Shown piece by piece: positions 47,018 through 48,771 of a stretch of DNA of 64,000 nucleotides. Every line of letters begins with the position of its first letter. The first letter of the stretch is position 1. Made by a program: the position numbers and the translations under genes. Source of the stretch: Candidatus Latescibacterota bacterium (GTDB lineage Bacteria > Latescibacterota > UBA2968); contig OZ242010.1 of the NCBI GenBank assembly GCA_965204745.1, positions 3,008,001 through 3,072,000 on the forward strand, read 5' to 3'. Below the pieces are notes generated by a model. That model did no database searches. It had not been told where the DNA came from and saw nothing but the letters and a program-made list of their open reading frames with translations.

Positions 47018-47530
47018 ATGCTGGATTTAGACGATCTCGGTCATGGGCTTCCGGCTATCACGCCGAACTTCGGCAAGGCACTGGCAGAAGCCGGGGGCGT
47101 ATGCTTGGAATCACAAGGGCATGTACAAGGCGTTCAACTTCTCGTCAGAGGGTACAAAAATAAACGCTATCCCTTAGCGTGGCCGCCGGTTACTGATCAA
47201 ACTCGCAGATGCTGGAATGACCCAGAGGTTGCCACTGAACACGGTGCGGTGGGTATTGCGGTTTTGCTGGCACAGAAGGAAATCGGCTATACAGTGATCG
47301 AGCGTTCTCAAAAAGGTACCGGCTTTGATTACTGGATGGGAGACGAGTCAAGTTTTCCCCTCCAGAAGAAGGCGCGGCTGGAAATATCGGGTATTCGCAG
47401 GGGAAGTGACCGCGTGAAGACGCGAGTCAGGCAAAAATTGAGACAAACCGACCCATCTGATGGGTCGAAACCGGCTTATGTCATTGTCGTTGAATTTGGA
47501 TATCCCCTTGCGGAGGTTCAAAAAAAATGA
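47018..47530 (+). CDS. Predicted PD-(D/E)XK-like nuclease
   Basis: ATE.GA...RS.KGTGFDYW...ARLEISG...K..Q...VVEF; GGAG RBS; lower GC than neighbours. Confidence 0.6.
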   Translation: MLDLDDLGHGLPAITPNFGKALAEAGGVCLESQGHVQGVQLLVRGYKNKRYPLAWPPVTDQTRRCWNDPEVATEHGAVGIAVLLAQKEIGYTVIERSQKGTGFDYWMGDESSFPLQKKARLEISGIRRGSDRVKTRVRQKLRQTDPSDGSKPAYVIVVEFGYPLAEVQKK

Positions 47531-47871
47531 GTGTTAGCGATTCCCACCATAAGGCCATGGATTTTGCGGAACACGCCCTTTTGGCACGCATACGAGGCCG
47601 TCGAGAAGACGCAATTGAGTTTTCTAAGAAGGCATTGGAGCATGAACTCGTTGCCATTCGGAAACTGGATGAGCGCGGCGAGCGTGTCGAGCCAACGTGG
47701 TCTGTGTTGCACCGCAGTGCCGGGTGGCTGGCGTTTAACTGCAATCAGTTTCGTCGCGCCGAGCAGTTGGCGCGCAAAGCCCTTGCTGGCAACCCACACC
47801 CAGAGATCGCAGATGAATTACGCGAACTTTTAGTGGAAATATATCGCACTTTGGAAAAAGACCTCTATTAA
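47527..47871 (+). CDS. Small all-helical TPR-like protein coupled to the nuclease
   Basis: ATGA overlap; H..AM..AE.A...ALE.E..A, EPT.SVLHRSA..LA, AE.L...AL.G.P..EI..EL. Confidence 0.7.
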   Translation: MSVSDSHHKAMDFAEHALLARIRGRREDAIEFSKKALEHELVAIRKLDERGERVEPTWSVLHRSAGWLAFNCNQFRRAEQLARKALAGNPHPEIADELRELLVEIYRTLEKDLY

Positions 47872-47927
47872 CGGATTTAACCCTTGAACAGATCGTTGCA
47901 CAAGGGGTGAAAGTCTTGTAGTTAATC

Positions 47928-48235
47928 TGTTGGTCATTGTTGATTGTTTGGTGTATGTTTTGTGTCGTATTTGTTCTTTGAAAAGTGAAGCGGGATAGGC
48001 CGTTGCTGATAAAGACATGTCTGCGACAGCGACAACCAAGCGGCAGACCTAAAATCTCCTATCAGCGTAAAATCCACAGGAAGAATAGGAAATACTAACT
48101 ATTCACTTGCGCGGCTAGCTTGACCGAGCAAGTAAAAAACGGACGTGGAGGTGCTGTAAGACGGACAAGAGGTTGTATGTGCTTGGACGCTGGCCTGATG
48201 AAGCGTCAATTTCAGTTGGTCAACAATGATCAACA
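47928..48235 (+). ncRNA. Candidate ~310-nt structured non-coding RNA
   Basis: 18-19 bp end-to-end helix enclosing several nested helices; weak TTGCAC-17-TAGTTA promoter just upstream. Confidence 0.45.
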
Positions 48236-48335
48236 AGAAAGGAGCGGGGTTGGTACTTCATGACCGGTTGCGCGATAAAAAAATTAAATGGCCTGAAATA
48301 AAGGAAATATAGCCCCATAGAATTGGAGATTCGCT

Positions 48336-48698
48336 TTGCGACGGTTTAGCCACATATTTACGGGCATCGCGTTGCGCGTGGTTGTCGCGCTGACGCTCGT
48401 CGGCATGGTCGCGCCGTGTCTGTGTTGGGCGCACGAGCGGCCGAGTTGTCACGCCACCGCAGAGATGGACGATTGTTGTTGTTCCAAAGACGCGACTGTC
48501 GATAGCGACATGCCCGTGCGCGGCCTGGCTGTTTTGCCGATTGAATGGCAAAATCCACCGTTGGATTTGATGCCCGCGATGTCGCCCATTGCCGTGCTTT
48601 CCCATCCCATATCCCTTCCTCTTTTGGGGCCTGATCGCGGCGGGTCATTGCGATCACCGCCCTGCCTGTACCTCCTCCACGCCACATTCCGCTTGTGA
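48336..48698 (+). CDS. Cys/His-rich leader protein with C-terminal RSPP (DUF2946/CutF/CruR-like)
   Basis: Signal-like N-terminus, CLC...SCH...DDCCC, Pro-rich linker, RSPP; GGAG RBS; first gene of the metal-efflux operon. Confidence 0.6.
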   Translation: MRRFSHIFTGIALRVVVALTLVGMVAPCLCWAHERPSCHATAEMDDCCCSKDATVDSDMPVRGLAVLPIEWQNPPLDLMPAMSPIAVLSHPISLPLLGPDRGGSLRSPPCLYLLHATFRL

Positions 48699-48771
48699 TA
48701 TTCCCCGTCTGACTGGCGTCGCGAATGTTTTACCCGTCCCTTTATACGCCCCTATTTTCTGGAGGTGACCG

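Follow-up and report, generated by a model that had tools for sequence, protein, structure and literature searches.

A probable IS607-type mini-element without genes and with an omegaRNA-homologous core in a Candidatus Latescibacterota genome

The locus and its empty counterparts

The intergenic stretch 47872-48335 of the window, as the whole analysed sequence of 64,000 nt is called here (G000:C1:3008001-3072000 in genome numbering), has a G+C content of 0.39-0.49, lower than that of its surroundings (~0.55), and raises the question of what its paired ends enclose. The original prediction saw in it a stand-alone multi-helix RNA with its own promoter, ribosome binding site and short ORF, either working with a pair of upstream nuclease genes or left behind as the leader of a deleted gene. 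The pairing itself is real, since 47928-47946 matches 48217-48235 over 19 consecutive positions, four of them G-U, both in the letters and in the MFE fold. At the DNA level the same arms make up a 16-nt inverted repeat, 94% complementary (47928-47943 and 48220-48235), and the folding energy of the element lies weakly below that of shuffled sequences independently of the strand (z -2.33 and -2.32 on the two strands).

The flanks were searched in 25 relatives, and the six with a short match abutting the site were fetched. In all six the frame reads through the site to the end of a 254-aa ORF (..LEQIAAQGGLILYNPDTQKKIKWPELREI), into whose sequence the window element was inserted after a GGGG run. 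The left remnant of the split gene (47866-47907, plus strand; codons ..LTDLTLEQIVAQG) ends in this run, and when 47908-48247, which includes one GG, is taken out, the frame and the Gly-Gly codons are recovered. The segment so delimited on the plus strand measures 340 bp and holds no ORF, and the CGG at its right tip belongs to it because no CGG occurs there in the relatives. The 20-codon ORF with a TTG start that follows (48250-48312, plus strand) does exist, but it is no gene of its own placed after an RNA: because the relatives read through in frame, it represents the last 20 codons of the interrupted gene, ending ..KKIKWPEIKEI where the 254-aa ORF of relative G006 ends ..KKIKWPELREI. Similarly, the AAGGAG hexamer that had been taken for a ribosome binding site is present, but as part of a conserved transposon right terminus. 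The proposed promoter, TTGCAC-17-TAGTTA, stays at chance level; a consensus scan of 47500-48700 returned no site, and its TTGCAC hexamer (47896-47901) falls within host coding sequence beyond the repeat and has no counterpart at the other two closely similar copies described below. A promoter and terminator scan gave no promoter-like site and one terminator-like site, again at chance level (minus strand, 48328-48313).

The genes around the insertion are conserved in relatives without the element. Just to its left (window 47829-47866), ~750 bp of relative G006 are missing, which correspond to most of the 254-aa ORF, of unknown family, and to the 3′ end of a TPR-like ORF (144 aa); the 114-aa ORF of the window (47527-47871) is the truncated version with a new stop, and its scar is ~40 nt away from the left edge of the element. 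The idea of an orphan leader holds to a small extent, most of a gene being missing here, but the stub ORF is the 3′ tail of that gene and not one led by an RNA. As for the supposed nuclease pair upstream, neither ORF matched a nuclease or defence family in Pfam, NCBIfam or PADLOC, and the second gave only weak, sub-threshold TPR matches. A retron, DRT or Abi context found no backing either, since a scan of 18 neighbouring ORFs (40-55 kb) turned up neither a reverse transcriptase nor an Abi gene, and PADLOC had no match.

A second copy of the same type, c5434 (G000:C1:5434330-5434670), splits a hicA-type toxin gene in sense orientation. One of the two relatives fetched for this site, G010, has a readable empty site, and the other, G009, is divergent and not alignable; G010 has an intact ortholog (HicA_toxin, E 1.3e-10), and the junction differs only by a synonymous GGT/GGG change. 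As at the window site, taking out the element with one GG gives back the frame that the relative shows. For the third copy, c3848, no orthologous site was found, its left flank being another repeat. This copy adjoins a 714-nt stretch (G000:C1:3847731-3848444) that is present in at least 12 genome copies at 96-97% identity and forms a further insertion sequence, whose opposite strand bears a transposase-like ORF of 337 aa.

An empty allele of the window site itself was recovered from one other sample, in which contigs of runs X2 and X6 skip exactly 340 nt (joint 47902-48243). This allele has the length of the precise product and is one base off the product of a precise GG crossover, with C in place of the G that is found in the filled allele and in all six relatives (GGG to GCGG); the element's right end has this C as its -3 base. 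A chance SNP could account for it, flank divergence being ~1%, and so could a footprint of excision or an allele escaping TnpB.

Family members and the RNA fold

The window element belongs to a family within its genome. Its own group, the A-type, comprises three copies of 340-341 bp that are 98% identical over ~345 bp. The B-type has three copies of 487-505 bp, and the C-type one full copy of 485 bp and one truncated at the 5′ end (c5275); all of these lack tnpB, which gives eight tnpB-less copies, three of A-type and five more diverged, among them the strongly diverged c3401 with its insertions. A core of 254 nt (47958-48211, plus strand), a putative omegaRNA scaffold, is common to A, B and C and was found in three B/C copies at 82-87% identity, plus two partial copies; A differs from B and C outside the core only. 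Moreover, ~74-nt matches lie at the 3′ ends of the ORFs of four full-length elements, the T-type, which carry tnpB only and measure 1368-1481 bp; their ORFs encode 412-413 aa, one of them reading 444 aa from an upstream start. The neighbours are unrelated at each copy, which contradicts an RNA partnering the genes upstream. A DNA search found the window element in none of 60 other genomes, 20 of them of the same genus, and a 28-nt degenerate core motif had no exact match in metagenome or viral contigs.

The junction upstream of the core is identical in all tnpB-less copies, which argues that they descend from one tnpB-less ancestor, from which they have diverged by 13-18%. The eight were aligned from the start of the core to the right tip (alignment A1), where RNAalifold returned 48 pairs in seven helices. 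On the plus strand, the 5′ domain (47993-48075) comprises helix 1 (47993-47996/48072-48075), helix 2 (48004-48015/48055-48067) and helix 3 (48019-48024/48043-48048), and the 3′ domain (48105-48207) comprises helix 4 (48105-48114/48124-48133) and helix 5 (48142-48146/48203-48207), together with helix 6 (48150-48155/48192-48196) and helix 7 (48159-48169/48182-48191). Standard pairs fill 98.3% of the 359 cells, against 93.4 ± 0.6% in shuffles (0/500), and both sides have changed at 14 of the 48 pairs (9 of the 21 in the 5′ domain), against 5.6 ± 1.3 in shuffles (0/500) and 0-2 with partners slid by 1-3 columns, figures that come from an alignment which both yielded and tested the structure, whose rows are related sequences of a single genome, with three near-identical ones among them, and in which the diverged c3401 contributes several of the double changes. 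The pattern indicates that compensatory substitutions have preserved an RNA fold among the tnpB-less copies and, since these share one tnpB-less ancestor, that this preservation continued after the loss of tnpB.

A conserved multi-helix RNA had therefore been recognised rightly, although not in all its parts. The supported helices coincide with four of the six inner helices first listed, all six of which can be read in the sequence: GGAT/ATCC, GCTGATA/TATCAGC and GTCTGC/GCAGAC are retained through compensatory changes among the eight members, and ACTTGC/GCAAGT shows one compensatory pair. GACGCT/AGCGTC is present but invariant across A1, hence uninformative. The outer pairing proposed for GTATT/AATAC occupies just 57.6% of the A1 cells, and that of GTTCTT/AAGAAT reaches 90.5% yet shows zero compensatory changes, so that neither pairing is supported. 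The warning that the ends could be those of an insertion sequence was on the right track, for transposon ends are present and the element occurs in several copies; the outcome named as refuting, a multi-copy MITE devoid of internal covariation, was encountered by half, since the copies are multiple but covary.

The same figures weigh on the best-placed rival, namely that the locus is an inert relic: a remnant of a TnpB insertion sequence after internal deletion, still moved and copied, whose inherited fold no longer has a function. The empty promoter scan, the 5′ truncation of c5275 and the strong divergence and insertions of c3401 would suit such a relic, but unconstrained decay over 13-18% divergence would not be expected to leave 98.3% of the cells paired and 14 pairs changed on both sides, and we regard this reading as unlikely.

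The T-type ORFs are TnpB by their matches to OrfB_IS605 (E up to 3.6e-20), Cas12f1-like_TNB (~1e-21) and HTH_OrfB_IS605 and are ~80% identical to one another. The nearest solved natural structure is ISDra2 TnpB (3e-40), above which an AI-designed nuclease ranks, and the T-type protein is nearer to ISDra2 TnpB than to the 8iaz chain, which we take to be ISFba1 TnpB. Alignment to a solved nuclease showed the RuvC motif positions retained in the four ORFs. Two more distant TnpB-like frames (G000:C1:91729-92850 and 4480401-4481087) share 26-31% identity with the T-type protein. In the four full-length elements, the last ~40 tnpB codons (~371-411) and the sequence downstream are homologous to 48097-48211 (tblastn, aa 371-411), which suggests that the 3′ half of the core is the site of the TnpB guide RNA (omegaRNA) scaffold, the homology applying to the 3′ domain only. 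Within the T-type tnpB region the ACTTGC/GCAAGT helix is replaced by CGAC/GTCG. The 5′ domain (47993-48075) has neither clear DNA homology to tnpB nor a demonstrable counterpart inside it; RNAalifold on the T-type 3′ regions only (n = 4) gave 91 pairs with 3 compensatory, too few sequences to judge helices 1-3 in tnpB.

Outside the genome, the closest relatives of the T-type protein, out of 12 loci, come from two Caldilineaceae MAGs (45% identity); 24 metagenome loci do not exceed 41%. The RNA comparison covered the two Caldilineaceae loci, and BLASTN of the core against the remaining relative loci gave nothing meaningful. In both (L026:2653-2800 and L027:2641-2790) the motifs and helices of the 3′ domain recur after tnpB, with 5 of 17 pairs compensatory across 10 sequences and right ends reading ..GGAGAYCGG, so that this un-annotated omegaRNA type appears to reach another phylum. 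Rfam had no match at the gathering threshold in the whole window; a permissive scan of 47600-48600 returned RefA1 alone (E 5.9, noise), and the 12 family loci gave Ms_IGR-5, below gathering, and a miRNA match, both in locus L019 and unrelated to the element. The covariance model of RAGATH-18, the core of the IS607 reRNA, matched neither 47600-48600 (E ≤ 10) nor the 12 family loci (E ≤ 1).

Junctions, ends and the IS607 assignment

All 12 copies close on the right terminus GAGCGG, followed by unrelated flanks, and NGGG precedes the left end in all 11 that have one; in the window the TAM-like GGG lies at 47905-47907 and the junction GG at 47906-47907 (plus strand). A GG thus stands before the left end (11/11) and another closes the right end (12/12), with no further target duplication, and the GCGG of the right end differs from the NGGG of the left flank at -3. 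AG as crossover dinucleotide, which the ambiguous AG at the 340-nt skip had hinted at, was rejected for insertion because CGG would then be flank, yet it is missing from the relatives at this position, and because left ends of variable length would be required.

Every element carries a subterminal inverted repeat whose sequence varies by type and which in most of them begins 17-30 nt inside the left tip and 11-13 nt inside the right one. In the A-type these distances are 20 and 12 nt, so the repeat is subterminal and not terminal. Its left arm in the window (47928-47946, plus strand), near-palindromic with TTGGTCA .. TGATTG, shares this geometry with other family members and lies within the left end (47908-47957), which is specific to the A-type and unlike the ~200-nt left end of B, C and T copies. 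The right end (48212-48247) contains the right arm (48217-48235) and the terminus ..GAAAGGAGCGG (48237-48247), which includes AAGGAG. Arm mismatches in the T- and B-types are of the kind A.C, C.A or A.A, with no wobble pairs, which argues that the complementarity of the ends is a feature of the DNA and not an RNA helix. The comparison identifies the presumed 19-bp closing stem as the subterminal inverted repeat of transposon ends, whose arms may be two copies of a protein-binding site.

The genome, 97.65% complete in a single contig, has no match to the Y1 transposase (PF01797). On the other hand, it has six serine recombinase genes (PF00239), three without stop codons and three with an in-frame stop, and none inside the window element. 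All six serine tnpA genes lie in elements of 1765-1787 bp, the S-type, that also bear a distinct tnpB (G000:C1, near 210494, 1989429, 2876228, 3134478, 4119935 and 4364223). S-type junctions read AGG+AG on the left and ..TC+AG on the right, and S1989, with TG at both, pinpoints the crossover dinucleotide; S-type and T/A/B/C junctions appear to follow the same logic. According to the available text of the CboIStron work, IS607 elements move through a circular double-stranded intermediate with a strict GG core dinucleotide and a 5′-TGGG target or TAM, and their guide scaffold ends in UCGG, the -3 base discriminating target from right end (10.1101/2023.11.20.567912); the TAMs given for IS607 TnpBs in the ISFba1 study are AGGAG or GAGGG (PMC11061315). 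The window element was placed in the IS607 family because of its GG junctions, the NGGG left flank, the lack of Y1 and the six serine-recombinase IS607 copies, and the comparisons indicate mobile DNA with sharp boundaries and IS607-type junctions.

A closer alignment of the ends suggested a mixed origin. The A-type right end aligns to S-type right ends with scores of 12-17 (z 4.2-9.3, 0-3/300 shuffles), and its left end to those of S4364 (score 17, z 3.4, 3/300 shuffles) and S1989 (score 14, z 2.4, 8/300 shuffles), both of which belong to the three S-type copies whose tnpA is intact; with the ends of T, B and C it has in common the last ~9 nt alone. The inverted-repeat consensus is TGTTGRTCATTGTTGA in the A-type versus TGTTGACYATTRTTG in S4364 and S1989. 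Because its end repeats match resident S-type IS607 copies, the A-type looks chimeric. Recognition by the TnpA of S4364 is not assured, given that the spacing from left tip to repeat is 20 nt in the A-type versus 16 nt in S4364. Nor would an end swap be strictly needed for mobility, since T1804 and T5320 are near-identical though their repeats are unlike those of the S-type, which suggests recent mobility of T-type ends too.

Proposed mechanism, rivals and related systems

Altogether, 47908-48247 is very probably an IS607-type mini-element with an omegaRNA-homologous core, and the full explanation that we consider likely is that of a non-autonomous, tnpB-less IS607 miniature with a left end, a guide-RNA scaffold and a right end. 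Both candidate helper genes, for TnpA and TnpB, are present in the genome. A resident serine recombinase TnpA would bind the near-palindromic subterminal repeats at both ends and would excise and insert the element as a circle with crossover at GG, a role for resident TnpA that seems rather more credible than not. Transcription would come about probably by read-through from the host gene, given that two of the three A-type copies lie sense-oriented in genes. The transcript would then be processed into an omegaRNA by T-type TnpB, with a predicted guide of ~20 nt after ..GCGG (48248-48267, plus strand, where the host gene resumes too), placed by analogy with the published TnpB guide directly 3′ of the right end (10.1101/2023.11.20.567912, in the text available). 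TnpB supplied in trans by T-type elements would cut the emptied site through its GGG motif and guide match, and repair from the sister copy would restore the element; the filled site would be protected because its right end reads GCGG and not GGG. Cutting of vacated sites by TnpB with restoration of the element has been shown for IS605 and IS607 elements in the published accounts consulted (10.1101/2023.11.20.567912, PMC11061315, PMC10055086), and a guide-RNA role of this kind was suggested for PATEs by Meers et al. in the accessible part of their paper (PMC10055086). That the omegaRNA of the window family functions in trans is an evenly balanced proposition.

A bolder version of this mechanism, which we put forward tentatively and with some doubt, is that the A-type is a natural two-parent chimera and an RNA-only selfish element, with the ends of one IS607 lineage and the guide scaffold of another TnpB lineage, which would parasitise the TnpA of one and the TnpB of the other, and that the X2/X6 allele would be an excision survivor that escaped TnpB cutting. 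If true, this empty allele would amount to field evidence of guide-RNA-driven retention for a gene-less element.

A domesticated guide is a far weaker contender than a relic. Under it, the tnpB-less copies would direct TnpB or a nuclease-dead relative to fixed sites for regulation, in the manner of TldR-type repressors; guide-bearing loci without an adjacent nuclease gene do occur in the genome, and domestication of TnpB with its guide RNA has been published (10.1101/2023.11.30.569447, as far as its available text goes). Fixed targets are nonetheless hard to reconcile with the unrelated flanks after ..GCGG in all 12 copies, with copies that are recent insertions into genes (the 254-aa gene and hicA) and are missing from 60 relatives, and with the RuvC motif positions kept in the four TnpB ORFs, which makes this reading highly improbable. 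The stand-alone RNA of retron, DRT or Abi style, or leader of the downstream ORF, with which this analysis began, had in its favour an end-paired multi-helix architecture beside small ORFs, but is refuted by copy number and empty orthologous sites, its copies having unrelated neighbours, the relatives keeping the neighbouring genes without it, no reverse transcriptase, Abi or PADLOC family lying adjacent, and AAGGAG and the ORF being accounted for by a transposon terminus and a split host gene. Annotators may take from it the warning that a structured RNA followed by a ribosome binding site and a short ORF can be a transposon terminus and the tail of a split gene.

The non-autonomous miniature that we favour has its closest counterparts in IS607 elements with TnpB and omegaRNA/reRNA, such as the CboIStron (10.1101/2023.11.20.567912) and ISFba1 (PMC11061315), as these are described in the parts available. 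They share an identical dinucleotide (GG) at both junctions with no other duplication, a G-rich motif abutting the left end (NGGG in the window family; TGGG, GAGGG or AGGAG in print) and, in the CboIStron, a scaffold ending ..CGG in which C at -3 marks the right end, with the guide RNA at that end. The window element differs in lacking tnpA and tnpB at 340 bp, in an RNA that is not RAGATH-18 by Rfam, and in ends and RNA core that come apparently from two IS607-type lineages. PATE-like minimal IS200/IS605 elements with omegaRNAs, as presented in the accessible text of Meers et al. 2023 (PMC10055086), are likewise non-coding and non-autonomous, keep ends and guide scaffold, and need TnpA and TnpB in trans, as the window element would by inference. 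According to that text, PATEs depend on a Y1 transposase for their movement as single strands, and their hairpin ends come with TAM/TEM motifs, whereas the window element has subterminal inverted repeats of double-strand type, GG junctions and a genome without Y1 transposase. With bacterial MITEs it shares small size, lack of coding capacity, multiple copies, inverted repeats, a predicted mobilisation in trans and a mosaic of modules, but its repeats are subterminal, no duplication exceeds GG and the interior is a covarying RNA fold instead of filler, so that it would be better called MITE-like than a classical MITE. The RNAs of retrons (msr/msd), DRT and Abi systems resemble it in being structured and in having paired ends; unlike them, it has no adjacent reverse transcriptase or effector, is multi-copy with differing neighbours, and owes its end pairing to a transposon repeat at the DNA level.

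OmegaRNA-bearing PATE-like elements had already been mentioned for the IS605 family in the available text of PMC10055086. Full-text literature searches and passages of a 2026 review (PMC13565253), supplements aside, brought up neither an end-swapped chimera nor a naturally occurring IS607-type element that lacks genes and has a guide-RNA core. TnpB guide RNAs are usually studied beside their nuclease gene, and here eight gene-less copies kept the fold after the loss of tnpB, which argues that the guide RNA alone can be a unit of selection, now in the serine-recombinase (IS607) branch; such modularity was suggested by Meers et al. for IS605 PATEs (PMC10055086, in the part available). The apparent end swap offers a testable case of hitch-hikers retargeting to whatever transposase the genome provides. 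For practical use, the family offers an un-annotated omegaRNA type for which Rfam has no model, together with a likely target motif of GGG type and a minimal donor of natural origin with which transposition and retention could be assayed.

Finally, the ~200-nt left end of B, C and T4230 contains a long hairpin in which GCAAGGC/GCCTTGC and GCCACGC/GCGTGGC replace each other in compensatory fashion between copies, nested in a CCGCCG..CGGCGG stem and followed by a T-run. It looks like a terminator, which would insulate these elements from outside transcription.
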